From assembly GCA_045805205.1 (NCBI GenBank), contig JBJMLR010000007.1, positions 114,467 to 178,466 of the forward strand: a stretch of DNA of 64,000 bases. The letters are read 5' to 3'. The position numbers and the translations under genes were made by a program. The notes below the pieces were generated by a model. The model did not search any database. It saw nothing but the letters and a program-made list of their open reading frames with translations, and had not been told where the DNA came from. The DNA is from Bacteroidia bacterium (GTDB taxonomy: Bacteria > Bacteroidota > Bacteroidia > 2-12-FULL-35-15). Shown here piece by piece: positions 9,132 to 61,103 of the stretch (its first letter is position 1; the number at the start of each line of letters is the position of its first letter).

Positions 9132-9138
9132 CCTATAA

Positions 9139-9186: not shown

Positions 9187-9191
9187 CTCCA

Positions 9192-10400: not shown

Positions 10401-10401
10401 G

Positions 10402-42144: not shown

Positions 42145-44526
42145 ATGGCAGACAAAAAAGGGTCCAACATCATAGAAATGGACGATATCAGGTCGTTCCT
42201 GAAAGTCTTTTCCAAGAACTGGTACATCCTTATTCTGGCTGTCATCGTTTCTGCTGTAATTGCCTATTTTTATACCTACAAGCTTCCTGATATTTATGCT
42301 GCCAAATCACAGGTACTCCTGAAATCGGATCAGACCTATGATTACCAGACAAAGCTTTATAACGGTCTTGGTTATTATCCCATTTACCAGGACAACGCCA
42401 ACCAGATCCGGGTATTGACCTCTAATGATCTTATTGAAAAGGCGCTTGAGAAACTGAAGCTTGATGTTTCCTATTATATCGTCGGCCGCCTCAAAACGAC
42501 CGAAGTGTATGATGCGATGCCGTTTGATTTTTCGGCGAAGCTGCTGGACGGAAAGCTGTACGAAAAAGAGATCAGGTTCAAGATCCTCGACAAGCAGCGA
42601 TTCCGGATCACGTATCAGAAGGGAGATAAAGAAGTAGTGAAGGAATTCCCGTTCGATAAGGATATCTACGACAATGATTTTGTGCTGAACGTAAAAAAGA
42701 ACGATAACATCAACGACAAAACGATCCAGAACATCAGCGAGAATGACTACATGATCAAGGTGCATAATATGGGTAGCATGGTGGGTCATTATAAAGGTGC
42801 ATTAAGTGTGGAGGAAGTTGAAAATACTTCCATTCTTGAGCTTTCGGTAGAGGATGAGATCGCTGCCCGTGCGATCACTTTCCTGGATACACTCTCTAAA
42901 GTATATATCGATTATACGGCATCTGCGCAGTACACGGTGAATGAGAATACGCTGAATAATATCGACAAGCAGCTGGCGGGTGTAACGGAAGTGCTTACAT
43001 CGATCGAGGACGATCTTGAAAATTACAAAGCGAACAAGGAAGTACTGGATCTTCCAAAACAGGAGGACCAGTATTTCGACAAGCTGGTGGAATACGACGC
43101 GCAGAAAAGGGAGCTGGAGCTTTGGATCGGATCCCTCGAGGCGCTGGAAAAATATATTATTGCGATCGGAGAGCAAAAAGATGAGAAACTTTTGCCGCCT
43201 TCTTTTTATATCGGAAAAGATGATGACTATCTGAAGACCGCGATCAACGAGCTGTATACATTGCAGATGAACCGGAATTCCAGGCTATTCAATTCTACAG
43301 AAGAAAATAAGAATATCTCCGAATTGGATCAGACGGTGGTACTTCTCAAAAAAAATATCCTCACGTACATCAAGAATTCGAAAGAGGGCATCCAGAATAA
43401 GATCAAAGATATCGATAAGCAGATCGCCGATTATACTGCGATCATTAAAGGGATCCCAAAAACGCAGCGGGATCTTCTGACGATCCAGCGCAAGGTGGAT
43501 GTGAATGAAAAAATGTATGTCTACCTGCTGGAGCAGCGGGCGAACACGATCATTGCGCGTGCGGGGATCCTTCCGCAAACGGATATTATTGAATCGGCGC
43601 ACTCGATCGGGATCATTAAGCCAAACAAAAGAAAGATCCTTTATTATTTTATGACGGTCGGATTGCTCCTCAGCCTTATTGTCGTATTCATCCGCACGGT
43701 GCTGTTCTCAACGATCGAAAATATCCTCGAGCTGAAGCGCCTGACCAGCCTGCCCGTTCTGGGAGAAGTATTGCTTTCGGACGATGCGAAGTTTAACTAT
43801 ATCATTGTGGACAAAGATCCGAAATCGGCGGTCACGGAGAGCTTCCGGGCCATCCGGACCAACCTGGAATACATGGCAAGCAATGCGCGCTCAAAAGTGA
43901 TCCTGATCACTTCGTACAATCCGGGTGAAGGAAAAACATTCTGTTCGGTGAACCTTGCTACGATCCTTGCCAAAGCCGGAAAAAAAGTGCTGATCCTGGA
44001 ATTGGATCTTCATAAGCCGAAAGTGCAGAAGGCGCTGAATATGTCGTCCGAGATGGGAGTAAGTACAGTGCTGATCGGCAGGAATACAATAGAAGAAGCC
44101 ATTCTAACTACGGAAATTGAAAACCTGTCGGTTGTGCTTTCAGGTCCGACTCCTCCGAATGCATCGGAGATCATATTGAGCCCGCAGCTGAGTGAGATCA
44201 TGGAGTATGGGCGTACCCATTACGATTATGTGATCGTGGATACTCCGCCTGTCGGGTTGATCACCGATGCATTGGTCATCATGAAGCACGTGGATGTATC
44301 TCTTTTTGTACTCAATGCAAAATATGCCAAGAAACAGATCGTGAAGATCGCAGAAGAAATTGTTGAAGCAAATAAGCTGAAGAATTTCGGGCTCATCCTG
44401 AATGGTGTCAAACGCACCCGCCGCGGATATTATAACAGCTATGGCTACGGCTATGGTTATGGCTACGGATATAGCTATGGCTACGGCTACGGCGGTTACG
44501 GTTATGGAAATTCCAAGAAAAAATAA
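42145..44526 (+). CDS. wzc: Wzc-type polysaccharide co-polymerase / BY tyrosine kinase
   Basis: Two TM segments flanking a periplasmic coiled region, ESFRAIRTNL, Walker A GEGKT, Walker B VIVDTPP, C-terminal Tyr cluster. Confidence 0.92.
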   Translation: MADKKGSNIIEMDDIRSFLKVFSKNWYILILAVIVSAVIAYFYTYKLPDIYAAKSQVLLKSDQTYDYQTKLYNGLGYYPIYQDNANQIRVLTSNDLIEKALEKLKLDVSYYIVGRLKTTEVYDAMPFDFSAKLLDGKLYEKEIRFKILDKQRFRITYQKGDKEVVKEFPFDKDIYDNDFVLNVKKNDNINDKTIQNISENDYMIKVHNMGSMVGHYKGALSVEEVENTSILELSVEDEIAARAITFLDTLSKVYIDYTASAQYTVNENTLNNIDKQLAGVTEVLTSIEDDLENYKANKEVLDLPKQEDQYFDKLVEYDAQKRELELWIGSLEALEKYIIAIGEQKDEKLLPPSFYIGKDDDYLKTAINELYTLQMNRNSRLFNSTEENKNISELDQTVVLLKKNILTYIKNSKEGIQNKIKDIDKQIADYTAIIKGIPKTQRDLLTIQRKVDVNEKMYVYLLEQRANTIIARAGILPQTDIIESAHSIGIIKPNKRKILYYFMTVGLLLSLIVVFIRTVLFSTIENILELKRLTSLPVLGEVLLSDDAKFNYIIVDKDPKSAVTESFRAIRTNLEYMASNARSKVILITSYNPGEGKTFCSVNLATILAKAGKKVLILELDLHKPKVQKALNMSSEMGVSTVLIGRNTIEEAILTTEIENLSVVLSGPTPPNASEIILSPQLSEIMEYGRTHYDYVIVDTPPVGLITDALVIMKHVDVSLFVLNAKYAKKQIVKIAEEIVEANKLKNFGLILNGVKRTRRGYYNSYGYGYGYGYGYSYGYGYGGYGYGNSKKK
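44440..44508 (+). repeat. (TAY GGN)n repeat encoding the YG tyrosine cluster
   Basis: YGYGYGYGYGYSYGYGYGGYGYG. Confidence 0.9.
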
Positions 44527-44547
44527 GCCGGTGTGCGGCAAACAGCG

Positions 44548-45399
44548 ATGAACAAACGAGAGGAAGACTGGACACTTGTCGTAAGACCGCAGAATAAATT
44601 GCTGCAGCTGAACTTACGGGAGCTGTGGCATTACCGTGATCTGGTGATCCTCTTTGTCAGGAGAGATTTTGTGTCGTACTACAAGCAGACCATTCTCGGT
44701 CCTTTGTGGTATATTATTCAACCGGTTCTCACCGCGATCATGTACTCGTTCGTTTTCGGAACAATCGCAAACATCGATACCCCGGGACTTCCGAAATTCC
44801 TCTTCTATCTTTCCAGCATCACGATGTGGAATTATTTTGCGGAAACGCTGAATAAAACCTCGAATACGTTCATTGCCAATGCACAGATCTTCGGTAAGGT
44901 ATATTTTCCGAGACTAACAGTTCCTTTGTCGATCGTGATCAGCAGCCTGATCGCGTTCCTGATCCAGCTCGCCGTATTTGTGACGGTTTTACTCTATTAT
45001 AATTTTGCCGGGACTCCCTTGCATCCCAACATCTACCTGCTGCTGCTGCCGCTGCTTGTTTTGGTAATGGCCGGGATCGGGCTGGGAGCGGGGATGATCA
45101 TTTCATCTTTAACAACCAAATACCGCGACCTTCGTTTTCTCATTACGTTCGGAGTGCAGCTGCTGATGTTCGCCACACCGGTGATCTATCCATTATCGGC
45201 GGTGATGGGAAAAAAGAAATTGCTGCTGATCGCGAATCCGCTGAGCTCTGTGATCGAAACGTTCCGCTATGGTTTCACCGGTGTCGGGGAATTTCACTGG
45301 GGATATCTTTTGTACAGCGTTGTGTTCATGGTAGCGGTGGTAGCGGCCGGCTCGGTGCTTTTTAACAAGGTTGAAAAATCATTCATGGATACCGTTTAA
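44548..45399 (+). CDS. wzm: ABC-2 polysaccharide exporter permease
   Basis: YKQTILGPLW, VYFPRL, KYRDL, TPVIYP, NPLSSVIETFR. Alternative GTG at 44533. Confidence 0.9.
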   Translation: MNKREEDWTLVVRPQNKLLQLNLRELWHYRDLVILFVRRDFVSYYKQTILGPLWYIIQPVLTAIMYSFVFGTIANIDTPGLPKFLFYLSSITMWNYFAETLNKTSNTFIANAQIFGKVYFPRLTVPLSIVISSLIAFLIQLAVFVTVLLYYNFAGTPLHPNIYLLLLPLLVLVMAGIGLGAGMIISSLTTKYRDLRFLITFGVQLLMFATPVIYPLSAVMGKKKLLLIANPLSSVIETFRYGFTGVGEFHWGYLLYSVVFMVAVVAAGSVLFNKVEKSFMDTV

Positions 45400-45403
45400 C
45401 AAA

Positions 45404-46681
45404 GTGAAAACAGTTATCAAGGTCGATCATCTCTCAAAAGAATACCGCCTCGGTGAGGTGGGCACCGGTACGTTTTCCCGCGATCTGAACAGCTGGTGGG
45501 CTAAGCTCAGCGGAAAAGAGGATCCGAATGCAAAGATCGATCTGCTGAATAATAAAAATGGTAGCAGCGAAGGTATTCACAAGGCGCTGACCGATGTTTC
45601 TTTTGAAGTTCAGGAAGGAGAAGTGCTCGGGATCATCGGGAAAAACGGTGCGGGAAAATCAACCTTGCTGAAAGTGCTTTCGCGTGTAACCACACCGACT
45701 GCCGGTGAATTCAAGGTCCGCGGACGAATTGCGAGCTTGCTTGAAGTAGGAACAGGCTTTCACCCGGAACTTACCGGGAGAGAAAATATCTTTCTCAACG
45801 GAGCGATCCTCGGTATGAAAAAGGCGGAGATCAGCAGAAAGTTTGATGAGATCGTTGATTTTTCCGGTGTGGAAAAATTCATCGATACACCTGTAAAGAG
45901 ATATTCATCCGGAATGTATGTACGCCTGGCTTTCGCCGTAGCGGCGCACCTGGAACCGGAGATCCTTGTCGTGGATGAAGTACTGGCGGTAGGTGACATT
46001 GCTTTCCAGAACAAATGCATGGGAAAAATGAATGAAGTCAGCAAGCAGGGGCGGACCATTCTTTTTGTCAGTCATAATATGCAGGCGCTCAGCCAGCTTT
46101 GCACACGCGGGATCCTGCTGCAGAATGGCAGCGTTGTTCAGAACGGAAGCATTACCGAGTCGATCAGGAACTACCTGAGCAACTCGATCAGCACCACCGG
46201 TCCGGCTTATGATCTTTCCCTGAATACCGATCGAAGAGGAACGGGGCTGCTCCGGTTCACGAAACTGGAAATGTATAACAAAGGCTCTCTGAGCAATAAT
46301 TATGTGATCGGGGATGACATGGAGCTGCGGTTGACGGTGAAAGCCATCAAGCCGGTGAAAAATGTGAGCATTGCGATCCATCTTTATCGTTATGATGAGA
46401 TCGTGCTTGCTAACATTGAAAATATAGATTCGGGTTTCATCATCGACCAGGTGGAAGGAGAAACTACTTTTAATATTAAGTTCAGCAATCTTAACTTTTA
46501 TCCTGAGACCTATAAGCTTGGTTTTTGGATCGCCAGCTCCGACAGCCAGGAAACACATGACCACCTGAAGTATTGCGCAGAATTCCACATAATGGAAGGA
46601 TCACCGCTGGTCAAGCGAAAGCTGCTCAGGACCGGCGGCTCGATCTACCTGACACCGGAGTGGGGATCCGGCGGCCGTTAA
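45404..46681 (+). CDS. wzt: ABC polysaccharide exporter ATPase with Wzt_C domain
   Basis: GKNGAGKST, YSSGM, VVDE, SHN, C-terminal carbohydrate-binding-like domain. GTG 45404 preferred. Confidence 0.92.
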   Translation: MKTVIKVDHLSKEYRLGEVGTGTFSRDLNSWWAKLSGKEDPNAKIDLLNNKNGSSEGIHKALTDVSFEVQEGEVLGIIGKNGAGKSTLLKVLSRVTTPTAGEFKVRGRIASLLEVGTGFHPELTGRENIFLNGAILGMKKAEISRKFDEIVDFSGVEKFIDTPVKRYSSGMYVRLAFAVAAHLEPEILVVDEVLAVGDIAFQNKCMGKMNEVSKQGRTILFVSHNMQALSQLCTRGILLQNGSVVQNGSITESIRNYLSNSISTTGPAYDLSLNTDRRGTGLLRFTKLEMYNKGSLSNNYVIGDDMELRLTVKAIKPVKNVSIAIHLYRYDEIVLANIENIDSGFIIDQVEGETTFNIKFSNLNFYPETYKLGFWIASSDSQETHDHLKYCAEFHIMEGSPLVKRKLLRTGGSIYLTPEWGSGGR

Positions 46682-46718
46682 TGGCCTGCTGGCAAAAATT
46701 CCATTATCTTTATTTTCT

Positions 46719-47750
46719 GTGAGTTCTCAAGAACAACATATAAAGCCGCTTGCTACGGTGCTGATGCCGGTACACAATGTGGAAAAGTATCTGCATGAGG
46801 CTATTGACAGTATTCTCGGACAGACTTTCCGGGATTATATTTTCCTGATCATTAATGACGGATCAACTGACAACAGCGAAGAGATTGTTTTATCGTATGC
46901 TGATCCGAGGATCCGTTATGTAAGAAATGAAAAAAACATCGGGCTGGTTGCGACGCTGAACAGGGGGCTGGAACTGATCGACACGCGTTACATCATCCGC
47001 ATGGATTCGGATGATATTTCTGTTCCCGAGCGGTTTGAGATCCTTGTGAATTACATGGAGCTGCATCAGCACGTGGGTGTGTTTAGCTCGGCTCTTGAGC
47101 GTTTCGGCTCCGAGTCTGCGATCTGGACATCACCGCTTTCCAACGACGAGATTAAAGCGCATCTCTTGTTCGGATCATCCATCGGTCATGCTCCTTCTAT
47201 CATCAGAACCTCGGTTTTAAAAGAAAATCAGCTTTATTTCCGGGATGTTCATCCGCACATGGAAGATTATGATCTCTGGTTCCGGATGAAGGACCTGACA
47301 GATTTTGCCAACACTTCTGAAGTACTTTACAAATACCGTGTCGCTGATCACAATGTAACGGTGGTGAACCGGGAGTCGGTGATCGACCGGAAGAAAAAAA
47401 TATTTTCCTGGATCCTCGGCTCTATTGGCATCCAGCCGACCGATGAGGAATTATTATTTCATATTGGTTTTGGTGGAGAGCACCTGAAACCTTCCAGGGA
47501 AATCGTGAAAAAATACAGGGCCTGGCTTGACAAGCTGGTTGAAGCAAACCGGCGTACTCAGAGCTTTCCGCATGAGGCGCTGAAAAAAGAAATTGAGAAG
47601 CGATGGAACCGGTTGTTCTATTTTCTTCCGGACAGCTCATTCGGAAGCATCCCTGTTTATGCGCGATTGTCGGGAGGTCTCACCTGGGCGCAAATCGTGT
47701 ACATGTCAAAGTTCACCGTCAGTAAATTCGTGTTCCGCAAAGGGCAGTAA
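46719..47750 (+). CDS. GT2 glycosyltransferase
   Basis: TVLMPVHN, INDGSTD, RMDSDD, EDYDLW. Similar to the GT2 at 4739. Confidence 0.9.
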   Translation: MSSQEQHIKPLATVLMPVHNVEKYLHEAIDSILGQTFRDYIFLIINDGSTDNSEEIVLSYADPRIRYVRNEKNIGLVATLNRGLELIDTRYIIRMDSDDISVPERFEILVNYMELHQHVGVFSSALERFGSESAIWTSPLSNDEIKAHLLFGSSIGHAPSIIRTSVLKENQLYFRDVHPHMEDYDLWFRMKDLTDFANTSEVLYKYRVADHNVTVVNRESVIDRKKKIFSWILGSIGIQPTDEELLFHIGFGGEHLKPSREIVKKYRAWLDKLVEANRRTQSFPHEALKKEIEKRWNRLFYFLPDSSFGSIPVYARLSGGLTWAQIVYMSKFTVSKFVFRKGQ

Positions 47751-47789: not shown

Positions 47790-48287
47790 ATGAAATTAAG
47801 TCTCCTGCTTCCATGTGCTTTCTTCTTTTGCTGCTCACTGGGGTACGCTCAGTATGTGGAGCGGCCTACAGATTTTTCTTCTTCGGGATCATACGGATAT
47901 AATACCACCAACCAGCTTCAATCCAATATCGGTGAGTTGATGATAACGACATTCAGCTCTTCCGCCGGAATGCTGACGCAAGGGTATATTCAGCCTGAAC
48001 CGGGCGTCATCACTGTTGCCGGAAATATCGGGACAGGACAGGCGCTGGTGTATCCGAATCCTTTTACCGATCAGTTTTTTGTTGATCTTCCTTCTGCTGC
48101 TGACCAGCCTTCAATTGAAGTGTATGATGTGACGGGTCGGTTGTGCTCTGCTTCACTTGAGTCCGTAACTATCTCCGGCCGGCTGCGTTACTCACTCCGC
48201 TTAGCTGAAAGTGCCGGCGGAATTTATTTTGTAAGAATTCATTCTGCGCAGATCAATGCCACGATCAAAATAATTAAGCTCGGATGA
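47790..48287 (+). CDS. Small T9SS type A cargo protein (165 aa)
   Basis: Signal GYA/QY, short SNIGE...LTQGYIQP domain, CTD VYPNPF...YDVTGR...GIYFVRI...KIIK. Confidence 0.85.
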   Translation: MKLSLLLPCAFFFCCSLGYAQYVERPTDFSSSGSYGYNTTNQLQSNIGELMITTFSSSAGMLTQGYIQPEPGVITVAGNIGTGQALVYPNPFTDQFFVDLPSAADQPSIEVYDVTGRLCSASLESVTISGRLRYSLRLAESAGGIYFVRIHSAQINATIKIIKLG

Positions 48288-50245
48288 AAAAGAATTTTCT
48301 ATATCTCCTCTTTTTTTTCATCGGACTTTTTGGATCCGTGCGGGTAGTGGAAGCGCAAGGTGTTCCGCAAGGCTTCAACTACCAAGCGGCGGTGCGCGAT
48401 AATTCCGGGAACCTGCTCATTTCACAACCGTTGAGTTTTCGCTTTTCATTCTACTCAGGAAGTTCTTCGGGACCGCTGCAGTGGCAGGAAACGCAATCGG
48501 TCACATCAGACAGTCGTGGAAATATTCATCTCGTGATCGGAACCGGAACATCCACCGGTGCCGGACTCTACACCGCATTCAGTAATGTGGACTGGTCTTC
48601 CGGGACTTATTACCTGAAGGTTTCAATAGACGTGACCGGCGGAAGCAGCTATACAGATATGGGAACAGCACAGCTATTCTCAGTTCCTTATGCATTTTAT
48701 TCCGGGACGACTTATGGCAGTCCGGGCATTGGCCTCATTGATTTTAATGATGTGGATCTGAGCGGTATTTCCAGCGGAAAATTACTGAAATGGAATGGGA
48801 ACCACTGGGTCCCCTCGATCGATAATCACTCAGATACGGTCTCCTATGCTTATTTTTCCGGTCATTCTATCACAACTGACACTGCGTACAATGTTTTAAG
48901 CTCCGCGCCGATCGATACGGTGCTGTTTGCATATGAAACTGCAAATACTGTGGCTGCGGGCAGTGCACAAAATGCGGTAAGTGCAGTAAGTTCTACCTGG
49001 TCGGATACTGCAACTTATGCTTTCGCAACCAACACCTGGAAAAGGAACGGGAACGCACTGGGAAGTACAGCCGGGTTTGCAGGTTCTGTAGATCCGCAGG
49101 CTGTGGAGTTCAGGACCAACGGCATTCGTTCACTAAAGATCGATGTAAATGGAAATGTGCTTACGCGCAATACGGTTAATATTGCGGATCTCAGTATTTC
49201 CGGAAATGACGGCTTTGTGGATGCAGGAACGTTTGGAAGTGGAATGTCATCGAATGTGGGTGCGGGTACGCGGCTGGCATGGCTGCCTTCAAAGGCTGCA
49301 TTCAGGATCGGTGCTGTTGCGACCCCGGCATGGGGTGATAGTATTGATATTTATTCTTTTTCTTCGGGATATGACAACCGGGTTGGAAAATATTCCATGA
49401 CGAGCGGATATAAATGCCTTGCCGGAGATTATACTGTAGCGATCGGCAGAAAGTCGGAAGCAAGTGCAAGGGGTGCATACCCCAATGGAACCGGGATAGC
49501 GCTTGGAGACAGCTGTACCGCAAATGCCCAGCGTACGATCTCCATGGGCAGGGGAAACCTTTCAACGTTGACAACAGCGGTCTCCATCGGAACATTCAAC
49601 AAAGCTACGGGTAATGTTTCGCTGGCATTGGGAAGCTACTCCAATTCGAATGGTTATTACTCAACGGTGATCGGCTATCACGGTTCGGCAAATGTGAAAC
49701 AGTCAGGGTTTCTGTATGCCGATGCCTCATCCGCCGCGGTAACGAATGCGACCGCAAATTACCAGTTCATGGTACGGGCTGCGGGAGGAACGATCTTCTA
49801 CACGGATTCCTTGTGCACAATGGGAGTGACTTTGTTCCCGGGTAGTGGAAGCTGGGCAAGTGTTTCAGACAGGAACAAAAAAGAAAATTTCAAAGAAACG
49901 GATCCGGAGGAGATCCTCTCGAAGATCACCGGGCTAAAGATCAGGAACTGGAGCTATCGTTCACAGAGCAGGAATATCAGGCATATCGGGCCAATGGCCC
50001 AGGACTTCTATCGTTTGTTCGGAGTGGGAGAAAACAATATAACGATCACCGGGATCGATATGGATGGTGTTGTGATCGCCGGGATCCAGGCATTGAATCT
50101 CCGTTTGAATCATCTTGAGCCGCTGCGGCACCTGGATACACTGGAGGCAAAGACTGCAGCAATTGAAAAAGACGAAAAGAATATGAAGGAGCGGCTCGAT
50201 GCGATCGAAGCTGCACTCGACAATAAAAAGAATATTGAAAAATAA
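48284..50245 (+). CDS. Secreted tail-fibre-like protein with YadA-like repeats and Peptidase_S74 chaperone
   Basis: Signal VEA/QG, PQGFNYQA N-domain, GxxS.A.G repeats, SDRNKK cleavage motif, RHIGPMAQDF, coiled-coil end. Confidence 0.82.
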   Translation: MKKNFLYLLFFFIGLFGSVRVVEAQGVPQGFNYQAAVRDNSGNLLISQPLSFRFSFYSGSSSGPLQWQETQSVTSDSRGNIHLVIGTGTSTGAGLYTAFSNVDWSSGTYYLKVSIDVTGGSSYTDMGTAQLFSVPYAFYSGTTYGSPGIGLIDFNDVDLSGISSGKLLKWNGNHWVPSIDNHSDTVSYAYFSGHSITTDTAYNVLSSAPIDTVLFAYETANTVAAGSAQNAVSAVSSTWSDTATYAFATNTWKRNGNALGSTAGFAGSVDPQAVEFRTNGIRSLKIDVNGNVLTRNTVNIADLSISGNDGFVDAGTFGSGMSSNVGAGTRLAWLPSKAAFRIGAVATPAWGDSIDIYSFSSGYDNRVGKYSMTSGYKCLAGDYTVAIGRKSEASARGAYPNGTGIALGDSCTANAQRTISMGRGNLSTLTTAVSIGTFNKATGNVSLALGSYSNSNGYYSTVIGYHGSANVKQSGFLYADASSAAVTNATANYQFMVRAAGGTIFYTDSLCTMGVTLFPGSGSWASVSDRNKKENFKETDPEEILSKITGLKIRNWSYRSQSRNIRHIGPMAQDFYRLFGVGENNITITGIDMDGVVIAGIQALNLRLNHLEPLRHLDTLEAKTAAIEKDEKNMKERLDAIEAALDNKKNIEK

Positions 50246-52236
50246 TGGAAATGGAAAAACTTTATAGCAACAGCCGGCTCCTGCTTTTGCTGCTCACTGT
50301 GTCCTTTGTGTCACGTGCGCAGACTGTGCCGCAGGGGATCACCTACCAGGGAATTGCCCGCGATGCATCAGGCGTGATCCTTACATCGCAGCCGGTGAGC
50401 ATCCGCCTGGGAATCTATTCACCGACGGTAACCGGCACACTCGAATGGCAGGAGATCCACAATGTCACGACCAATCAGCTTGGATTATTTTATTTTATCA
50501 TCGGACAAGGCACATCTACCGGTTCGGGATCTGTATCTTCTTTCGCTAACATCAACTGGGGAGCAGGAAATCATTTTGTCAGGATAGAGATGGATCCTGC
50601 GGGCGGAAGCAGTTATACCGATATCGACACCATGCAATTCTGGTCGGTTCCTTATGCAATGCAGTCGGGTTCAGCTGCCGTTGTTGCACAGTCATTCAGG
50701 CTTCACCAGCTGGCGGATGTGGATACGATCGGGGTGGTGACCGGTGATGTTTTGAAATGGAACGGATCATTGTGGCTTCCGGCACCGGATAATAATTCAG
50801 ATACTGCCATGTATGCGTATAGCTCCGGACATGCGGCTACTGCAGATACAGCAAGTTATGCGCTGAATGTGCTGTCGGTAGTAGATACGGTCCAGTTCTC
50901 CTATAATGCGGATTCAGCGGTGTTTGCCCAGAATGCCTCATCGGCGGTGAATGCGCAGTCATCTACTTATTCAGACACAGCGACGTATGCGCTGAATTCA
51001 ATCAATGCGTGGAACATAACGGGTAACTCAGGAACGAACCCGGTTTCCAATTTTATAGGTACTACCGATAATACGGATCTTGTAATCAAGACAAACAATA
51101 CAGAGAAAATGAGACTGACTTCTGCCGGCAAAGTAGGGATCGGAATCACAGCGCCTGTTGCATCCGTGCATATTGTCGGTACGGATGGATTGCTTGCGGA
51201 AGGAACATTTGGCTCAGGAACCATCGGGACTACGGGAACCGGAACACGGATGATGTGGTATCCGAAAAGAGGAGCTTTCAGAGCGGGCGGTGTTGCCACG
51301 ACAAACTGGGATGACGCTAATACCGGGAACTATTCACTTGGCGGAGGATATAACACGAAAGCATCCGGTGCTTATTCCACTGCTTTTGGAAACGGATGCA
51401 CAGCGAGCGGAGCTTATTCATTCGCAGCGGGAGACGGAAGCATCGCGTCGGGAATTTCCTCCATTGCGGTGGGAAGTGCTGCCGGAACAGGGGGAGCATA
51501 TGCCGTGGGAATCGGAAGAGATGTGATCTCCTCTGATTCCGGATCAGTGGCGATCGGCTATACGGTCCGGGCAACCGGAAAATATTCGCTTGCGATGGGC
51601 GGATATGGTATTGCTTCGGGCGACTATTCTGTTGCGATGGGCTTCCATGGGAATACCAACGGGCACCGCGGAAGCTTTGTGTTTGCAGATGGTTCATCGG
51701 CAGCGGTCACTTACAATTCAATGGACAATCAATTTATGGCAAGAGCGAGTGGTGGTGTGATCTTTTATTCCAATACTGCACTTACCAGCGGAGTATCCTT
51801 GCCGGCGGGCGGAGGGAGCTGGGCAAGCGTTTCCGACCGGAATAAAAAGCGCAACTTCAAAGCTGTTGATCAGGATGACGTTCTCGCCAGGCTTTGCAGC
51901 ATGAGCGTTACCAGCTGGAACTACAAATCACAGGATGAATCGATCCGCCACATGGGTCCGATGGCGCAGGATTTCTATTCTTTGTTCAAACTGGGTGAAA
52001 GTGATACGACCATCACAACGATCGACGTCGATGGTGTGAGCCTTGCGGCGATCCAGAGCCTTGCCAAAAAAACGGATGAGCTGAACAAAAAGAGCGAAGA
52101 AGTTGCTTTGCTGAAGGAAAAGATCGAGCAGCTTGAAAAAGAAAAGATGTTTCTTGAAAAGCGCATCTCGACGATCGAAAAGAAAATTAACTTGTCTAAC
52201 GAAAATGAAGAAACCGCTTCTGCAGGTAATAAGTAA
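50245..52236 (+). CDS. Secreted tail-fibre-like protein with YadA-like repeats and Peptidase_S74 chaperone (paralog)
   Basis: Signal SRA/QT, PQGITYQG, GTTDNTDL..KTN, ASGxYSxAxG repeats, SDRNKK, RHMGPMAQDF. Confidence 0.82.
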   Translation: MEMEKLYSNSRLLLLLLTVSFVSRAQTVPQGITYQGIARDASGVILTSQPVSIRLGIYSPTVTGTLEWQEIHNVTTNQLGLFYFIIGQGTSTGSGSVSSFANINWGAGNHFVRIEMDPAGGSSYTDIDTMQFWSVPYAMQSGSAAVVAQSFRLHQLADVDTIGVVTGDVLKWNGSLWLPAPDNNSDTAMYAYSSGHAATADTASYALNVLSVVDTVQFSYNADSAVFAQNASSAVNAQSSTYSDTATYALNSINAWNITGNSGTNPVSNFIGTTDNTDLVIKTNNTEKMRLTSAGKVGIGITAPVASVHIVGTDGLLAEGTFGSGTIGTTGTGTRMMWYPKRGAFRAGGVATTNWDDANTGNYSLGGGYNTKASGAYSTAFGNGCTASGAYSFAAGDGSIASGISSIAVGSAAGTGGAYAVGIGRDVISSDSGSVAIGYTVRATGKYSLAMGGYGIASGDYSVAMGFHGNTNGHRGSFVFADGSSAAVTYNSMDNQFMARASGGVIFYSNTALTSGVSLPAGGGSWASVSDRNKKRNFKAVDQDDVLARLCSMSVTSWNYKSQDESIRHMGPMAQDFYSLFKLGESDTTITTIDVDGVSLAAIQSLAKKTDELNKKSEEVALLKEKIEQLEKEKMFLEKRISTIEKKINLSNENEETASAGNK

Positions 52237-52247: not shown

Positions 52248-53453
52248 ATGCCTGAAAAGAATTTACACATTATTACTTCTTCTTTTCCATTTGGTAAAGC
52301 TGAGCAGTTCTTCGAGGCAGAGGTTTTAGAGTTAAGCAGAAATTTCGATCGGATCATCTTGTATCCTTTGAATCTGCCCGGTGAACAGCGGGTACTTCCG
52401 GCAAATGTTTCTGTAAATACAGTTTTGGCAACATCCAGCCGCAGGGTATCAAAATCATACTACCTTAAAAATATCCCGATCGTATTATCAATATTGAGCG
52501 GCGAGTTTTTTCACACAAAAAAGAAAAAAGCCCTGCTTGCGGATCTGAGGGACTATGCCAACTCTGTTTTACAATCGAAGCTCCTTTCGGAAGTATTCAT
52601 TAAGCAGGCTGTTACGCCAGGACAAAATTATTTTTACTCTTTCTGGATGAATGACGGCGCCTTGCTGTTGTCGCTGCTAAAGCGCCGGAAAAGCATTCCT
52701 GACTTTGTATTCCGGGTGAATGGCTTCGATCTTTTCGATGACCGGACGAAAAAAGGCTACATGCCGTTCCGGTATTTTAACTTCAGCCAGGCTAAAAAGG
52801 TGATCGTGCTTTCGGAAGTCGGCTTCAATTACCTGGCAGAAAAAAAGATCTTTCCGGAAAAGCTTTACCTGAGCTACTACGGCATTTACGACCAGGGCCT
52901 GAATCCTTTTGATGAGAAAGGGATCTTTACGATCGTTTCCTGCTCGAACATGATCCCTTTAAAAAGGATCGATAAGATCGTTCGTGCGCTGCAGCATGTT
53001 TCCTTCCCGGTGAAATGGTTCCATTTCGGGGATGGCGTGCTGATGAGCGAGATCAAAGCAATGGCGGAAAAGCTGCCAGCCAATATCCACTGTGAATTAA
53101 GGGGGAGCAGGCCGAACTCAGAAGTGATCGGGCTATACAAAGAACAAAGTATAAATTTGTTCATGCACATGAGCGATACGGAAGGCCTGGGCCTGGCGAT
53201 CATTGAAGCGCAGAGCTTTGGAATCCCTGCGCTGGCGGTGGCTGCAGGAGGTGTGGTGAATGTGGTCAACGAAAGAACAGGACTGCTCATTGATCATCAT
53301 ACAACGCCACAGGAAACCGCAGCGCTGATCACGCAGTTTGCCGGAAGCGAAAAGAATGCTCCTGCCTACCGCAGAAAAGTAAAGGAGCACTGGGATGAAA
53401 AATTCAATGCGAAGAAAAATTATTTTGCTTTATTTGAAAAAATAACCGGATAA
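52248..53453 (+). CDS. GT4 glycosyltransferase
   Basis: TSSFPFGKAEQF, SFWM, EGLGLAIIEA (E-x7-E). Confidence 0.85.
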   Translation: MPEKNLHIITSSFPFGKAEQFFEAEVLELSRNFDRIILYPLNLPGEQRVLPANVSVNTVLATSSRRVSKSYYLKNIPIVLSILSGEFFHTKKKKALLADLRDYANSVLQSKLLSEVFIKQAVTPGQNYFYSFWMNDGALLLSLLKRRKSIPDFVFRVNGFDLFDDRTKKGYMPFRYFNFSQAKKVIVLSEVGFNYLAEKKIFPEKLYLSYYGIYDQGLNPFDEKGIFTIVSCSNMIPLKRIDKIVRALQHVSFPVKWFHFGDGVLMSEIKAMAEKLPANIHCELRGSRPNSEVIGLYKEQSINLFMHMSDTEGLGLAIIEAQSFGIPALAVAAGGVVNVVNERTGLLIDHHTTPQETAALITQFAGSEKNAPAYRRKVKEHWDEKFNAKKNYFALFEKITG

Positions 53454-53470
53454 AAAGACAGAACCGAACC

Positions 53471-54889
53471 ATGTTGTTTAATTCTTTTGCTTTCGCGGTT
53501 TTTTTCATTCTTGTCACAAGCCTCTATTTCATTATTCCATACAAGTACCGGTGGCTCCTGCTGCTGGCGGCCAGCTGTTATTTCTACATGGCTTTCATTC
53601 CATACTATATCCTGATCCTGGGAGGGACCATTGTCATTGATTATTTTGCCGGCATCCTGATCGAAGGCGCTCCTCGCGGCGCGAAAAGAAAGCTATTCCT
53701 TGTGATGAGCCTTGTTGCAAATATCGGTGTGCTGGCCGTATTTAAATATTACAATTTTTTCATGGATAATATCAATTCCATGTCGGGAGCTTCCCTGCCA
53801 TTGCTGTCCATCATATTGCCGATCGGCCTTTCTTTCCATACGTTCCAGGCAATGAGCTACACGATCGAAGTGTACAGGGGGAATTTCCGCGCGGAACGGC
53901 ATTTCGGGATCTATGCGCTGTATGTGATGTTTTATCCGCAGCTGGTGGCCGGCCCGATCGAGCGTCCGCAGAACATTCTTCCCCAGCTCAGGAAGAAGAA
54001 TGATTTGGATTACACACGGATAGCCGCCGGGCTGAAGCAGATGCTCTGGGGTTTTTTTAAGAAGATCGTGATCGCGGACCGGCTGGCGGTAGTGGTGAAC
54101 AGCGTGTACGATTCACCGGGGAAGTTCGATGGCGGCTCCGTGCTGATCGCCACCTATTTTTTCGCATTCCAGATCTATTGTGATTTTTCAGGATATTCGG
54201 ATATCGCTATCGGAGCTGCGAAAGTGATGGGCTATGACCTGATGGAGAATTTCAGGACGCCTTATGTTTCCCGGTCGATCAGGGAATTCTGGGAGCGCTG
54301 GCACATTTCCCTGTCGACATGGTTCAGGGACTATCTGTACATTCCTTTGGGAGGCAACCGTGTTGTGAAGTGGCGCTGGTATTATAACCTGTTCATCGTG
54401 TTCATCGTGAGCGGCTTTTGGCACGGTGCCAACTGGACGTTCATCGTTTGGGGAGCATTGCATGGATTTTACCTGGTTGTTTCCATCCTGCTTGGAAGGA
54501 AGGAACGAAAGGAAAATGACTTCAGTGCAAAGGTCGTTCGCTGCGGCAGAATCCTGCTGACCTTTCATCTCGTGGTTTTTGCATGGATCTTCTTCCGTGC
54601 GAAGAACATGACTGAAGCCATGCTAATCATAAAAAAGCTGGGTAATTTTTTTGTCTCTGCCGGAAATCACCTGAAGCTCCTGGACGCAGTGAAGCCGGCA
54701 ATGCTGCTGGTCACGTTGTTTCTGCTCCTGCTGTTCCTGTTCATCGATCCTTTTTTTGATGCCCTCGTGAAGGAACGAAAACAGCCGGGCTCGCGACTGC
54801 TGAATCTCGGTGTATATTCATTGCTCCTGGTGGTGATATTGCTCTTCGGATATTTTGGTAAAACAGATTTTATTTATTTTCAGTTCTGA
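53471..54889 (+). CDS. MBOAT O-acyltransferase (AlgI/PatA/DltB family)
   Basis: MLFNS, LPIGLSFHTFQ, QLVAGPIER, DFSGYSDIA, FWERWHISLS, GFWHGA (catalytic His). Confidence 0.93.
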   Translation: MLFNSFAFAVFFILVTSLYFIIPYKYRWLLLLAASCYFYMAFIPYYILILGGTIVIDYFAGILIEGAPRGAKRKLFLVMSLVANIGVLAVFKYYNFFMDNINSMSGASLPLLSIILPIGLSFHTFQAMSYTIEVYRGNFRAERHFGIYALYVMFYPQLVAGPIERPQNILPQLRKKNDLDYTRIAAGLKQMLWGFFKKIVIADRLAVVVNSVYDSPGKFDGGSVLIATYFFAFQIYCDFSGYSDIAIGAAKVMGYDLMENFRTPYVSRSIREFWERWHISLSTWFRDYLYIPLGGNRVVKWRWYYNLFIVFIVSGFWHGANWTFIVWGALHGFYLVVSILLGRKERKENDFSAKVVRCGRILLTFHLVVFAWIFFRAKNMTEAMLIIKKLGNFFVSAGNHLKLLDAVKPAMLLVTLFLLLLFLFIDPFFDALVKERKQPGSRLLNLGVYSLLLVVILLFGYFGKTDFIYFQF

Positions 54890-55827
54890 TGGAGCTTAAA
54901 AAGATCATAAGGAACGGCGTTCTGCTTTTTATTGTAACGGCCCTCATCTACCTGGGAGTGATGTTCGTTCTTGTGAATGTGCGGAGCGGGCGTGTTCCAT
55001 TGGTATATAAAGTGGTGGAAGGATTGAGCTGGAAAGGGGGGAACAGCTACCGGAAGTTTATTGATTTTGATAAAAAAGCACATTATAATGTTCTTGTTCT
55101 CGGCTCTTCACATGCATACAGAGGTTATGATCCGAGGATCTTCGCTGCTTCGGGTTATACAATGTTTAACCTCGGTACCAGCGGTCAATCCCTGCTGAAC
55201 TCTTACTATATCGCAACGGAATACATCGACGCAGGGAGCTGCGATCTGCTGATCCTTGATATTTATGACGGAGCATTGTCGGGTGATGGCTTTGAATCGG
55301 GTTCCGACCTGTTACAAAATATTTCCTCCGACAGGGCCGCTTTCCGAATGGGACTCAGCTACAAGGATCCGCGCATGATCAATATGCTGACAGTGCGGAT
55401 GATGAGCAAATCACAGCCTCCGCTGTATGTGGATTCACTCTACGCAGGAAATGGTTTCAGTGAAAAATGGGATAGCCTGACTACGGCGCTGCCGGCAGAA
55501 GCTTACAAAACAAAGTTCAGGATCAATGAACGCCAGTTGTGTTATCTCGATCAATTGCTGGCTTACCTGCAGCGGATCAAAATGCCGGTAGTGCTGGTGA
55601 GCCATCCTTCCCCGAAAGAACGAGATCAGGAGGATCATGTCGGGATCTCGCGAACGCTGAAAGCGCTGTGCACCAAATATCGCCTGCAATACCTGGATTA
55701 TTCTTTTGACGGATCGCTGGACACGAGAAAGCATTTCTACGATTCGCATCACCTGAATCAGGCGGGCGTGATACTATTCAACAAGGTCCTTCTTAACGAT
55801 CTGAAAAAGGATCGCTATCTTCATTGA
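54889..55827 (+). CDS. Membrane-anchored SGNH-like acyltransferase (AlgJ/PatB/DltD-like partner)
   Basis: N-terminal TM, LGSSH (Ser), NLG, FYDSHHLN (D-x-x-H). Coupled to the MBOAT gene. Confidence 0.7.
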   Translation: MELKKIIRNGVLLFIVTALIYLGVMFVLVNVRSGRVPLVYKVVEGLSWKGGNSYRKFIDFDKKAHYNVLVLGSSHAYRGYDPRIFAASGYTMFNLGTSGQSLLNSYYIATEYIDAGSCDLLILDIYDGALSGDGFESGSDLLQNISSDRAAFRMGLSYKDPRMINMLTVRMMSKSQPPLYVDSLYAGNGFSEKWDSLTTALPAEAYKTKFRINERQLCYLDQLLAYLQRIKMPVVLVSHPSPKERDQEDHVGISRTLKALCTKYRLQYLDYSFDGSLDTRKHFYDSHHLNQAGVILFNKVLLNDLKKDRYLH

Positions 55828-55862
55828 TTCATGCACCGGTCTGCTTTTTCCTTAAAAGATAG

Positions 55863-55870
55863 TACATTTG
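55863..55870 (+). promoter_or_regulatory. -7 promoter box (TACATTTG)
   Basis: Exact TAnnTTTG upstream of the SDR gene. Confidence 0.5.
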
Positions 55871-55898
55871 AAGACAAATAAAACACAGCGGAAAGATA

Positions 55899-56561
55899 AT
55901 GAAACACATTGCAATATTTGGAGGTACGGGAGGGCTCGGAAGTAAGCTGGCAGAGGAACTGGCAGGCAGCTTTAAAGTTACCGCGCTTGGCTCAAAGGAT
56001 GTGGATGTAACGGATTACTCCCAGGTCAGGGCTTTCTTTGAGGAGCAAACAGTAGACATTGTGCTGAATTTCAGCGGCACAAATATCGACGGCTTCATGC
56101 ATAAATATAATTCAGAGAACCAGTCGAACATTGATGTGCAGATCAATACGAATATCCGGGGAACCATTAATATTCTCAGTTGCTGTCTTGGGCAAATGCG
56201 GGAAAGGGGTTACGGAAGGATCGTCCTGGTCTCTTCCATTCTTGCTCATTCACCCGTGGTCGGCACCGGTGTATACTCCGGCTGCAAAGGATTCATCGAT
56301 AGCATTGTAAAAACAGTTGCACTTGAAAATGCCGCGAAAGGGATCACCTGCAACAGTCTGCAACTGGGCTATTTTGACGGAGGACTTACTTACCGGATTC
56401 CTGAAGAGGTACGGGAAGGCATTGTGAAATCTATACCAGCCGGGCGTCTCGGAATGATCCGTGAACTTGCAAATGTGACCAGGATGCTCATCGATACAGA
56501 GTACATGAACGGTGTGAACTTAAAAGTAAACGGGGGACTGGACATATTCAAAGAGATGTAA
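55899..56561 (+). CDS. SDR oxidoreductase (FabG-like)
   Basis: GGTGGLG, GRIVLVSS, YSGCK (YxxxK), IPAGRLG, VNGG. Confidence 0.88.
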   Translation: MKHIAIFGGTGGLGSKLAEELAGSFKVTALGSKDVDVTDYSQVRAFFEEQTVDIVLNFSGTNIDGFMHKYNSENQSNIDVQINTNIRGTINILSCCLGQMRERGYGRIVLVSSILAHSPVVGTGVYSGCKGFIDSIVKTVALENAAKGITCNSLQLGYFDGGLTYRIPEEVREGIVKSIPAGRLGMIRELANVTRMLIDTEYMNGVNLKVNGGLDIFKEM

Positions 56562-56654
56562 CAGCATTGCATGGATTTTCCTTTCGGTGCCTTGTGGTCT
56601 CCCGGATAATGATTAAACGATTTGCAGTCTTAAACAGAGAAGCTGAGGACATTC

Positions 56655-57923
56655 ATGAATACGAATGAACAGAGTCATATTTTATTAATTGCATATACGT
56701 TTCCTCCGGCTCCGGGAATAGGAGGAAGGCGCTGGGCAAAATTTGCAAAATACCTTGCTGCCAGAGGTTATGTTGTTCACGTGATTACGGCAAAGAGTAC
56801 TTCCGGGGACACGTCGCTTTGGTATGAAGACGTGCATGGAAATAAAAACATCAGGATCTGTACACTTCCTCCAAGATATCCTGCCGCGCTCACAGCGGCC
56901 TCCAGTCATGGAGTTTCTGCAAAGATCCGGTATCATTTCTGGAAACGATTGCTGCCTGTTATTGCAGGAGGAAGTATCTACGACCGATCCGTGCTTTGGG
57001 AAGGTGCAATGCTGAAGGCAGCCGGAAAAATCATCCGGGAGAATAACATCCGGAATGTGATCGCTACGGGCGCTCCCTTCCGTGTACTTTATTTTTCCTG
57101 CAAATTAAAAGAGCTGTTTCCCGGTATTCATCTTATCAGCGACCTTCGTGATCCCTGGACAGAAGGGAAGAGCTATGGCTTTGAAAATCTTTCGGAGAAG
57201 CGGAAAGAATACGAAGTCAGCCTGGAGAAACATGTCTTTAAAAATACGGATGTCATCACAGCACCTTCTGAAAAGATCCTGGATTATCTTGAAAAGCACT
57301 ATCGTCCATCCAAAGTAAAAACAACAGTGCTTCCCCATGCATTCGACACCGATGAATTTGCTGAGGCAGTAGCCGTTTCACCGGATCCGGGAAAGGTCAG
57401 GATCACATTTGTGGGTACTGTGTATGAGCACACCGGTCATTATATTGAGGCTTTTATGCTTGCGCTGCAGAAAATAAAAATGTCGGCACCCGTTGTATAT
57501 GACAAGCTTTCACTCCGCTTTTATACCTGGAGCAGAAATAATATCGTCGAAATTGCCGGGAAACACGGCGTTTCAGAAAAGGTTGAGATGCACGGTCCGC
57601 TTCCTCCGAAAAGAATGTTTGCAACCCTCGCCGGTTCCGATTATGTACTGATCATTTTTACAGAAAAGTACAAAGACTATATCAGCACAAAGTTTTATGA
57701 GATCATTTACCTCAACCGCTTCATTATTTACATCGGGCCTGAAGGAAAAGTGAGTGAATTTATCCGGGAGAATAACCTGGGAATAGCGATCAGCCACGAG
57801 GAGGAGATAGAGCCGGCGCTTGTCTCCCTGTTATCCGATGTAAAAAAAAGCGTACCTTATCCGCACATTAAAGACCTTTCATTCGAAAAAATAACGGATC
57901 AGCTCGAGAGCTTATTCATTTAA
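56655..57923 (+). CDS. GT4-like glycosyltransferase
   Basis: AYTFPP...GGRRWAKFAKYL, DLRDPW, FVGTVY, STKFYE. Confidence 0.8.
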   Translation: MNTNEQSHILLIAYTFPPAPGIGGRRWAKFAKYLAARGYVVHVITAKSTSGDTSLWYEDVHGNKNIRICTLPPRYPAALTAASSHGVSAKIRYHFWKRLLPVIAGGSIYDRSVLWEGAMLKAAGKIIRENNIRNVIATGAPFRVLYFSCKLKELFPGIHLISDLRDPWTEGKSYGFENLSEKRKEYEVSLEKHVFKNTDVITAPSEKILDYLEKHYRPSKVKTTVLPHAFDTDEFAEAVAVSPDPGKVRITFVGTVYEHTGHYIEAFMLALQKIKMSAPVVYDKLSLRFYTWSRNNIVEIAGKHGVSEKVEMHGPLPPKRMFATLAGSDYVLIIFTEKYKDYISTKFYEIIYLNRFIIYIGPEGKVSEFIRENNLGIAISHEEEIEPALVSLLSDVKKSVPYPHIKDLSFEKITDQLESLFI

Positions 57924-57929
57924 GAAATT

Positions 57930-59027
57930 ATGAAAAAGAAAATCTTAATTGTTGTCGGCACACGTCCCAATTTCATTAAGGTAACTCAATTCAAAAAGGA
58001 GGCTGCCCATTTTCCCGGGATAGAGATCCGGATTGTTCATACCGGTCAGCATTTCGATGCTCAAATGGCGGATGTATTTTTTGAGCAGTTTGCCCTTCAG
58101 CCGGATTACTTTCTTAATATTTCCCAGGGATCTGCAAACCAGCAGATGTCGCAGATCATGACCAGGCTGGAAGAGCTGATCGCTGCTACTTTTAAGCCAG
58201 ACCTGGTAATGGTGGTAGGAGATGTGAACTCTACATTTGCCGCAGCGCTGACAGCGAAAAAGCTGAACATCCGGATCGCTCACCTGGAAAGCGGTTTACG
58301 AAGCTTTGATAAATCGATGCCCGAAGAAGACAACCGTGTACTAACGGATGCGATCACCGATCTTTTTTTCGTCACAGAACAATCAGGCATTGATAATCTT
58401 TTGAATGAGAAGGTGCCGGCTGAGAAGATCTTCTTTGTCGGTAATACGATGATCGATACGCTGGTGGCATACAAGGAGAAGATCATGGCATCGGACATTC
58501 TCGAAAAGCTGAAAATAGTCAAAGGAAATTATGTGCTGATGACCATGCACCGGCCGGCTACCGTTGATGACAGGGCCGGATTGCTTGAGCTGATCGGCCT
58601 CATCGAGGATGTAACGAGCTCAGAAAAACTGGTGTTCCCTGTTCATCCGCGCACATTGAAAAATATCACTGCCCAGGGTCTGATCAGTCATTTTGAAAGG
58701 AATAAAAACCTCGTAACGACTCCGCCGCTTGACTACTTTGCATTTCAGAAGCTCGCCGCCAGCTGTCATTACATCCTTACCGACAGCGGCGGGATCCAGG
58801 AAGAATCTACTCACCTGGGAGTTCCCTGTCTTACCTTAAGACCCAATACGGAACGCCCTGTTACTTGTTCCATCGGAACAAATACGCTGGTACCTTTTGA
58901 TCGCGCGGTGATCGGGAAAAATATCGCTGATATTAAGAGCGGCCGCTATAAAAAAGGAGTGAACCCGCCTCTGTGGGATGGCAGATCGACGTTTCGGATA
59001 TTGGAGATCATAAATTCCCTTCCGTGA
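57930..59027 (+). CDS. wecB: UDP-N-acetylglucosamine 2-epimerase (non-hydrolysing)
   Basis: VGTRPNFIK, HTGQH, VGDVNST, HLESGLRS, MPEEDNR, TDSGGIQEE. Confidence 0.93.
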   Translation: MKKKILIVVGTRPNFIKVTQFKKEAAHFPGIEIRIVHTGQHFDAQMADVFFEQFALQPDYFLNISQGSANQQMSQIMTRLEELIAATFKPDLVMVVGDVNSTFAAALTAKKLNIRIAHLESGLRSFDKSMPEEDNRVLTDAITDLFFVTEQSGIDNLLNEKVPAEKIFFVGNTMIDTLVAYKEKIMASDILEKLKIVKGNYVLMTMHRPATVDDRAGLLELIGLIEDVTSSEKLVFPVHPRTLKNITAQGLISHFERNKNLVTTPPLDYFAFQKLAASCHYILTDSGGIQEESTHLGVPCLTLRPNTERPVTCSIGTNTLVPFDRAVIGKNIADIKSGRYKKGVNPPLWDGRSTFRILEIINSLP

Positions 59028-60178: not shown

Positions 60179-60185
60179 TATCATT

Positions 60186-61094: not shown

Positions 61095-61103
61095 GCGATT
61101 CAG

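Follow-up and report, generated by a model that had tools for sequence, protein, structure and literature searches.

The stretch of DNA analysed here (the window, 64,000 nt) originates from a Bacteroidia bacterium (GenBank assembly GCA_045805205.1, contig JBJMLR010000007.1, positions 114,467-178,466 of the forward strand), and all coordinates given are positions in this window. Its listing of open reading frames (ORFs) contains a cassette of three overlapping ORFs on the plus strand: a small gene for a protein with a type A C-terminal domain (CTD) of the type IX secretion system (T9SS), followed by two genes for paralogous fibre proteins, fib1 and fib2. In a search of sequencing runs, the locus was present in soil metagenome DNA runs only. 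The features of the cassette are as follows; MAT refers to a class of fibres described for Bdellovibrio, and S74 to the Peptidase_S74 domain.

47790..48287, + strand: small T9SS substrate, 165 aa; signal peptide (aa 1-20), small-N module (aa 21-76) and type A CTD (aa 87-162)
47850..48017, + strand: small-N module (aa 21-76), from alignments; the proposed fibre-binding part
48048..48275, + strand: type A T9SS CTD of the small protein (PF18962, E 7.5e-11; TIGR04183, E 2.5e-11)
48284..50245, + strand: fibre 1 (fib1), 653 aa; signal peptide (aa 1-24), MAT-like N-domain (aa 25-143), repeat-rich shaft, S74 domain and C-terminal helical tail
48356..48712, + strand: fib1 N-domain (NF053851, E 6.4e-8; local hidden Markov model (HMM) fibN, E 8e-56)
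49865..50017, + strand: fib1 S74 core; SDRNKK (Ser528...Lys533) starts at nt 49865
50245..52236, + strand: fibre 2 (fib2), 663 aa; layout as in fib1, to which it is 42% identical
50320..50673, + strand: fib2 N-domain (NF053851, E 3e-10 for the whole protein and 2e-11 for the domain alone; modelled with AlphaFold2)
51058..51219, + strand: fib2 segment aa 272-325 (GTTDNTDLVIKTNNTEKMRLTSAGKVGIGITAPVASVHIVG), matching PDB 8ojn/8onb/8onc (E 6.8e-7) and bd2133 (8ond; E 0.0036)
51280..51705, + strand: fib2 YadA-head-like repeats, aa 346-487 (PF05658, 27.8 bits, cutoff 25, best at aa 443-467; extent from PDB BpaC 7o23 and Hep_Hag 3s6l)
51832..51987, + strand: fib2 S74 core; SDRNKK (Ser530...Lys535) starts at nt 51832

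The stop codon of the small gene and the start codon of fib1 overlap as ATGA (48284-48287), and those of fib1 and fib2 as TAATG (50243-50247), with one base common to TAA and ATG. A scan for promoters and terminators gave counts no higher than expected by chance, the consensus used being ill-suited to Bacteroidota promoters.

The small protein matches the Pfam model Por_Secre_tail (PF18962) with 42.6 bits (cutoff 27) and the type A model TIGR04183 with 43.4 bits (cutoff 23); no other domain was recognised in it by Pfam or NCBIfam. Its leader is predicted to be cleaved between GYA and Gln, as read by inspection (the signal peptides of all three proteins were judged by eye), and both features of T9SS type A cargo such as the gingipains of Porphyromonas gingivalis and the S-layer proteins of Tannerella forsythia, i.e. 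the Sec leader and a C-terminal type A domain above the curated thresholds, are present. Unlike in such cargo, the passenger comprises only the approximately 65 residues left between signal peptide and CTD and carries no enzyme or adhesin domain, and it is the large functional proteins encoded beside it that lack a CTD. No genes for T9SS machinery were found in the 64-kb window; three further CTD proteins are encoded there, so the host organism presumably has a T9SS.

The best-conserved part of the small protein is the small-N module, with the invariant core LQSNIGELM ... L(T/S)QG(F/Y)xQP in the alignments, for which no matching model was found in Pfam or NCBIfam. A small-N profile recovered 348 clusters at E<=1e-3 from 1.84 billion representative proteins; among the 150 matches listed, nearly all are 150-180 aa in length, with the small-N match at residues ~20-75. 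Two large proteins with matches in multiple stretches (P0128 and P0136) were rejected as low-complexity or repeat proteins rather than true relatives. In an AlphaFold2 model of the small protein, the CTD forms a beta-sandwich (predicted local distance difference test score, pLDDT, ~80), and aa 19-71 have a pLDDT <50, with no fold for small-N.

The two fibres are paralogues, colinear from end to end, with a VPQG..YQ N-domain in common, and their Sec-type leaders end in VEA (fib1) and SRA (fib2) before a Gln, as judged by eye. Peptidase_S74 (PF13884) was recognised at aa 528-578 of fib1 (39.8 bits) and at aa 530-581 of fib2 (44.3 bits; cutoff 22), and in both fibres this domain starts with the S-D-x3-K motif of the Ser-Lys dyad (SDRNKK at aa 528 and aa 530, respectively); S74 domains self-cleave after assembly of the trimer. 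Neither fibre contains a CTD (none at E<=0.1 in Pfam/NCBIfam, and none with a local CTD HMM) or a YadA_anchor barrel (at E<=0.1 in Pfam and NCBIfam). The AlphaFold2 model of the fib2 N-domain is a six-strand beta-sandwich (pLDDT 87) with a poorly defined, though conserved, SVPYA tail; Foldseek searches with this model against PDB and BFVD returned only generic immunoglobulin (Ig)-like sandwiches (TM <= 0.5) and no specific relative. The small protein bears the hallmarks of a T9SS substrate, and the fibres have Sec leaders and no outer-membrane targeting feature of their own.

These results agree with most of what a preliminary description of this DNA had claimed from its letters, i.e. the three-gene cassette with its ATGA and TAATG overlaps, a small protein composed of a short domain and a type A CTD, Sec signals with a +1 Gln and a common PQG..YQ N-domain in both fibres, and the lack of a T9SS CTD and of a beta-barrel in the fibres; the S-D-x3-K motifs, placed there at about 49865 and 51832, start at exactly these positions. 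YadA-like repeats had been claimed for both fibres, and this was correct for fib2, whereas the repeats of fib1 gave no Pfam or PDB match.

Both shafts also contain repeated DT[AV]xYA units (48830-49015, fib1 aa 184-244; 50800-50980, fib2 aa 186-244), which fit the Bacteroidota O-glycosylation sequon D-(S/T)-(A/I/L/V/M/T). The sequon occurs seven times in fib1 (2.5 expected) and eight times in fib2 (2.9 expected; P ~0.01 by shuffling), and the units are kept in orthologues by inspection; the excess could reflect glycosylated fibres or simply a structural repeat.

The association of small gene and fibre was surveyed from both sides. In the forward survey, 77 genomic loci were fetched by the fibre N-domain alone (closer set A4) from at least 598 matching stretches, which are spread over Flavobacteriia, Chitinophagia, Saprospiria and others. 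These loci contain 105 N-domain ORFs in 80 tandem arrays, 73 of which have enough upstream sequence; a small-N ORF lies directly upstream in 54 of the 73 (74%), and 53 of these 54 small ORFs carry a CTD. The arrays comprise one to four fibres, with a single fibre in 43 of the 54 that have a small gene; heterotrimeric fibres, as had been considered for the two paralogues, found no support. In the reverse survey, 79 loci were fetched by small-N alone, yielding 77 assessable small-N ORFs, of which 70 have a CTD; a fibre N-domain gene adjoins 52 (68%), 48 times downstream and four times upstream, and the remaining 25 include the first of two tandem small genes in some cases and orphans in others. 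The two genes of a pair are separated by a median of 4 nt (65 pairs) and overlap in 24 cases, typically by 1 or 4 nt. Non-redundant gene pairs number roughly 90 in all.

The pairing is kept when the fibres carry collagen-like tips (L015), a C1q head (L096), Fib_succ-like or DUF1566-like C-terminal endings (by eye), or a non-S74, cysteine-containing end in Saprospiraceae (L013, L014); it is also kept when the small-N protein is enlarged by PKD or fn3 spacers, and when the gene order is reversed (L018, L097). Constant in all of this are small-N plus CTD on the one side and the MAT-like N-domain on the other, and since a small gene is often followed by one to four fibres that differ in their tips, the shared N-domain appears to be the feature to which the small protein is linked. 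Small gene and fibre are thus genetically coupled across the phylum through the constant base of the fibre. The preliminary description had named a non-conserved gene order among the results that would speak against its proposal; the order is conserved, in 54 of 73 and 52 of 77 cases, in five metagenome-assembled genomes (MAGs) that have the whole neighbourhood in common (see below), and in other contexts. These counts also refute a coincidental adjacency, an explanation to which we give practically no credit: CTD proteins are common in Bacteroidota, with many CTD genes per genome and several near the fibres of L015, but the neighbour observed here is one specific family, with its 348 clusters among 1.84 billion representatives, and it was found beside fibres in two independent samples.

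Covariation between the partners is higher for small-N with the fibre N-domain than for the CTD with the fibre N-domain, both as the 99.9th percentile of cross-protein covariation (0.297 vs 0.193) and as partial distance correlation (0.51 vs 0.38). Most of it consists of one two-class split, in which QGF-type small-N occurs with V/G/L fibres and GNGY-type small-N with T/S/Q fibres; both classes occur among records labelled Flavobacterium.

Several further features of the surveyed loci were recorded. Culturable carriers include Flavobacterium sp. DSR3-2 (L033), Aquimarina litoralis (L082), Maribellus maritimus (L142) and Lewinella sp. W8 (L156). The fibre C-termini in L019-L095 include collagen-like G-x-y runs in 25 ORFs, leucine-rich or DUF285-like ends, and endings in SVRCVKD (Fib_succ_major-like by eye) or VRAVRKF (DUF1566/Lcl-like by eye); the C1q-headed fibre is encoded at 30-464 of L096, and the NCBIfam Lcl and Scl collagen adhesin models match approximately ten N-domain relatives. 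A local S74 HMM, which was built from close relatives and is too narrow, matched no distant fibre, though several of their C-termini look S74-like. Stand-alone proteins of 143 aa that consist of a signal peptide and the fibre N-domain only are represented by P0046 (L015, 6001-6432), the gene of which sits amid CTD proteins and full fibres, and similar proteins are P0054, P0060, P0068 and P0069; such proteins could cap the small-N partner or compete for it. Because two tandem small-N/CTD genes precede one fibre gene in L108, L110, L112 and L117, the stoichiometry or specificity of the small-N partners may vary. In L017 (5473-5994) the small gene is split by a frameshift, and in L018 (6001-9668) the fibre is broken into six or seven ORFs beside an integrase; in both cases an error of long-read assembly is a more probable cause than a pseudogene. 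A proteome table of extracellular and outer-membrane vesicles (PMC10682907) includes a 362-aa 'tail fiber domain-containing protein' from Tannerella forsythia (WP_046825792.1), for which the predicted location is given as 'Outer membrane'.

The nearest described counterparts of the fibres are the 21 trimeric MAT fibres of Bdellovibrio, in which a signal peptide is followed by an invariant, beta-rich N-domain (~130 aa) and by mosaic tips, with S74 as the ending in 13 cases. According to their description (PMC10769870), the N-domain is located beside the cell, where it 'would presumably tightly bind' a surface element yet to be identified. The NCBIfam model NF053851 (Bdello_MAT_N) matches fib1 with 32.6 bits, fib2 with 40.2 bits and the fib2 domain alone with 43.9 bits; the E-values (6e-8 to 2e-11) are significant and all scores lie below the curated 60-bit cutoff, so that the fibres are to be regarded as homologues of MAT fibres and not as members of the Bdellovibrio subfamily. 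The same model matches 109 of 109 N-domain relatives (alignment A5; best E 5.7e-15). As in the MAT layout, the N-domain begins straight after the leader (aa 25 or 26). The best matches of fib2 among solved structures are Bdellovibrio MAT structures, followed by the YadA-type heads BpaC and Hep_Hag, and fib2 aa 272-325 resembles the MAT capping-loop motif published in PMC10769870; fib1 has no PDB match. Mosaic tips on a constant base are also found here, with relatives that end in S74, collagen-like, C1q or other C-termini.

On account of the Bdello_MAT_N, MAT-structure and N-domain evidence, we regard the fibres as distant relatives, within Bacteroidota, of the MAT fibres and not as phage genes left behind. 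With Bdellovibrio MAT fibres of the S74 type (Bd3182) and the non-S74 type (Bd2133) they share the signal peptide, the subsequent beta-rich N-domain of ~120-130 aa, the repeat-rich shaft, the mosaic tips, and an S74 domain with SDxxxK or another ending; fib2 has a stretch that resembles the capping-loop motif, and a trimer is presumed here. They differ in their host, a non-predatory soil Bacteroidota, in their location within a polysaccharide operon, and in the small T9SS-CTD partner gene that is joined to the module, no such partner having been reported for Bdellovibrio. With S74 fibres and spikes of phages (K1F endosialidase; T5 L-shaped fibre pb1) they have in common a C-terminal intramolecular chaperone with the Ser-Lys dyad and, presumably, trimerisation-dependent self-cleavage and glycan-binding tips; they differ by their Sec signals and their N-terminal domain, and their genes are chromosomal, conserved and not close to any virion genes. 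The YadA-head-like repeats of fib2 (PF05658; PDB 7o23, 3s6l) recall trimeric autotransporter adhesins such as YadA and BpaC, unlike which the fibres end in S74 in place of a C-terminal YadA_anchor barrel and have the opposite polarity, with an N-terminal base.

The cassette had been proposed to be a domesticated phage-fibre system, a label that fits only in part: the fibres are most closely related to bacterial proteins, the MAT fibres of Bdellovibrio. A remnant of a prophage or tailocin would explain the S74 domain and the beta-helical repeats, both typical of phage fibres, and the weak Foldseek matches of the N-domain are mostly phage proteins. Such an origin is nevertheless highly improbable and was rejected: both fibres have Sec signals, polysaccharide genes surround the cassette in a 64-kb window free of phage genes, its place in the chromosome is the same in five MAGs, and the partner is a T9SS substrate.

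The preliminary description had suggested that the small protein may be an adaptor, an idea that these results support in part. We propose that the small protein anchors the fibre by its N-domain or serves as an adaptor for its export, and it is to this model as a whole that we incline, with considerable reserve. The system would be a two-component cell-surface fibre module, the fibres being Sec-exported, trimeric adhesins of the MAT kind, in which the Ig-like N-domain is constant and shaft and tip vary. Their C-terminal chaperone, the S74 domain, would remove itself once the trimer has formed, by cleavage at Ser528 in fib1 and at Ser530 in fib2. The ~55-aa small-N module would bind the fibre N-domain, so that the T9SS CTD would be supplied in trans. 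Cargo of the T9SS folds in the periplasm, and in P. gingivalis it is exported and loses its CTD, after which it can be attached to the surface by the C-terminus thus formed. Two options may thus be envisaged for the module. In the first (piggyback), the complex of small protein and fibre would be carried out through the T9SS; in the second (anchor), the small protein would be exported first, lose its CTD and be surface-fixed by its new C-terminus as in P. gingivalis, and would then hold the base of the fibre. The tip would face outward, since small-N is located at the extreme N-terminus of its protein (sometimes on a PKD/fn3 stalk) and the base of the fibre is N-terminal as well. The analysis shows the domain content, the homology, the gene coupling and the conserved pairing; binding, export route, anchorage, cleavage and ligand are inferred.

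For true export by a CTD in trans, taken as a part of its own, our expectation is lower, and we regard it as rather doubtful. The same reserve applies to the fuller form, in which small-N would grip the Ig-like fibre base, carry the fibres through the translocon or dock to them afterwards, and leave them tethered by its processed C-terminus. A conceptual analogue is the 'hitchhiker' export by the twin-arginine translocation (Tat) system, in which subunits without a signal are exported while bound to a partner that has one; the Tat case likewise has a targeting signal acting in trans on a folded complex, but involves a different membrane, machinery and signal. The low confidence for small-N in the AlphaFold2 monomer would fit a module that folds on a partner, and lends some slight support to the adaptor; the poorly defined SVPYA tail of the fibre N-domain is a further, weak sign in its favour.

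A number of observations weigh against the anchor or adaptor model. About one quarter of the fibre arrays have no adjacent small gene, and about one third of the small genes have no adjacent fibre. To our knowledge, Bdellovibrio has no T9SS; its MAT fibres reach the surface without one, and the N-domain therefore does not need a small partner in every lineage. No precedent for piggyback or hitchhiker secretion by a T9SS was found in the literature searched, and searches on S74/tail-fibre proteins with T9SS and on collagen-like T9SS fibres gave nothing relevant. The low confidence for small-N may merely reflect the four-sequence alignment used for the model, and the covariation is suggestive only, because one two-class split dominates it and adjacent genes are co-inherited.

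An alternative is an accessory role, in which the small protein would be functionally tied to the fibres as a periplasmic or secreted factor, with the fibres leaving by vesicles or another route; it could block premature assembly of the fibres, cap the N-domain, or mark the assembly site. Conserved adjacency and coupling would fit any tight functional link, orphan small genes and fibre arrays without a small gene exist, and Bdellovibrio MAT fibres work without such a partner. However, nearly all small proteins have kept the CTD (53 of 54 and 70 of 77), and T9SS export is therefore clearly part of the role of the small protein; in addition, the larger variants place small-N at the far N-terminus of stalk-like CTD proteins, a topology suited to an anchor. 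We consider a purely accessory role unlikely, and prefer the anchor or adaptor.

The cassette is located inside a co-directional, tightly packed polysaccharide operon, the other parts of which are as follows.

42145..47750, + strand: upstream operon, encoding a Wzc-like polysaccharide co-polymerase (PCP)/tyrosine kinase, Wzm, Wzt (with Wzt_C) and a family 2 glycosyltransferase (GT2); 39-nt gap between GT2 and the small gene
52248..59027, + strand: downstream operon, encoding a family 4 glycosyltransferase (GT4), a membrane-bound O-acyltransferase (MBOAT), a 312-aa protein, a short-chain dehydrogenase/reductase (SDR), another GT4 and a UDP-GlcNAc 2-epimerase; 11-nt gap between fib2 and GT4

This gene order is common to five Bacteroidota MAGs (L007, L009-L012), two of which (L011, L012) lack GT2 between Wzt and the small gene; identities across the five are 33-39% for the small protein, 48-52% for fib1 and 60-64% for fib2. 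In one further MAG (L001/L008) the pair of small gene and fibre has other surroundings, and in L004 it follows GT2. No homologues of the extracellular polysaccharide (EPS) genes were found in the loci from other lineages (L015-L095), and the embedding in the operon is therefore specific to this clade. The preliminary statement that no phage genes lie nearby is true throughout the 64-kb window but incomplete, in that it missed the polysaccharide context. In this clade, the module would be co-transcribed with the Wzm/Wzt operon, and the fibres probably act together with its polymer, either by binding it or by being glycosylated.

Alternatively, the fibres might serve the polysaccharide pathway itself, as tethers or depolymerase-like trimmers of the polymer exported by Wzm/Wzt, with the small protein as a separate passenger. 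The cassette is separated from Wzt/GT2 by 39 nt and from GT4 by 11 nt, a position kept in the five MAGs; glycan binding has been described for phage fibres and spikes with S74 and for the MAT fibre Bd3182 (PMC10769870); and no Poly_export (Wza/OPX) match was found among the ORFs of the Wzc/Wzm/Wzt locus (38600-63700). On the other hand, the same module occurs in non-polysaccharide contexts outside the clade, no glycosidase or lyase domain was found in the fibres in searches of Pfam, NCBIfam and PDB, and the general pairing of small-N and fibre would be left unexplained. As an account of the module a role of this kind is thus quite improbable, more so than the accessory role, but it may still describe the ligand of the fibres in this clade.

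Three ORFs in this region have no Pfam match (54889-55827; 58973-60178; 60141-61376, - strand). The C-terminus of the Wzc-like protein (~44440-44520) is a long Tyr/Gly tail (YGYGYGYGYGYSYGYGYGGYGYG) with an unusually regular tyrosine cluster for a PCP tyrosine kinase. Upstream of the operon are genes for an exosortase-like membrane protein of 172 aa (38669-39187, - strand), an 807-aa G8-domain protein with a T9SS CTD (39497-41920, - strand), and an 1884-aa G8/Ig/PKD protein with a T9SS CTD (33014-38668, + strand); in L007, L009, L011 and L012 the first two also lie beside the Wzc operon, and each of these four loci has, at its edge, a match to the C-terminal end of the third. A second, separate polysaccharide cluster (30-10992) encodes two DegT-type aminotransferases, seven glycosyltransferases (GT2, GT4, GT11), a Wzy_C/O-antigen-ligase-like protein and a Bac_transf initiating transferase.

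Of the components, MAT fibres, S74 domains and T9SS CTDs had all been described before. The dedicated mini-substrate partner appears to be the new part; no description of the pairing of small protein and fibre was found in the literature searched. Cargo of the T9SS is currently defined by a CTD on the cargo itself. If the anchor or adaptor model is true, a widespread class of CTD-less fibres, each encoded beside a dedicated mini-substrate, would extend this rule. Should the CTD indeed act in trans, in the fuller form considered above, the small protein would be the first known case of such a T9SS sorting signal. The small protein would then also represent one kind of cell-side partner for N-domains of the MAT type, a point left open by the Bdellovibrio work. 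Pfam has no model for small-N or for the fibre N-domain, and NCBIfam has none that attains its curated cutoff with either; defining the two would improve the annotation of many proteins now labelled 'hypothetical', 'collagen-like' or 'tail fiber domain-containing'. In the fuller form, if true, the model would account for the arrival at the surface of hundreds of collagen-like, S74 and lectin-tipped Bacteroidota fibres, and it would give a testable display route for the large, unannotated adhesin repertoire of soil, freshwater and marine Bacteroidota.

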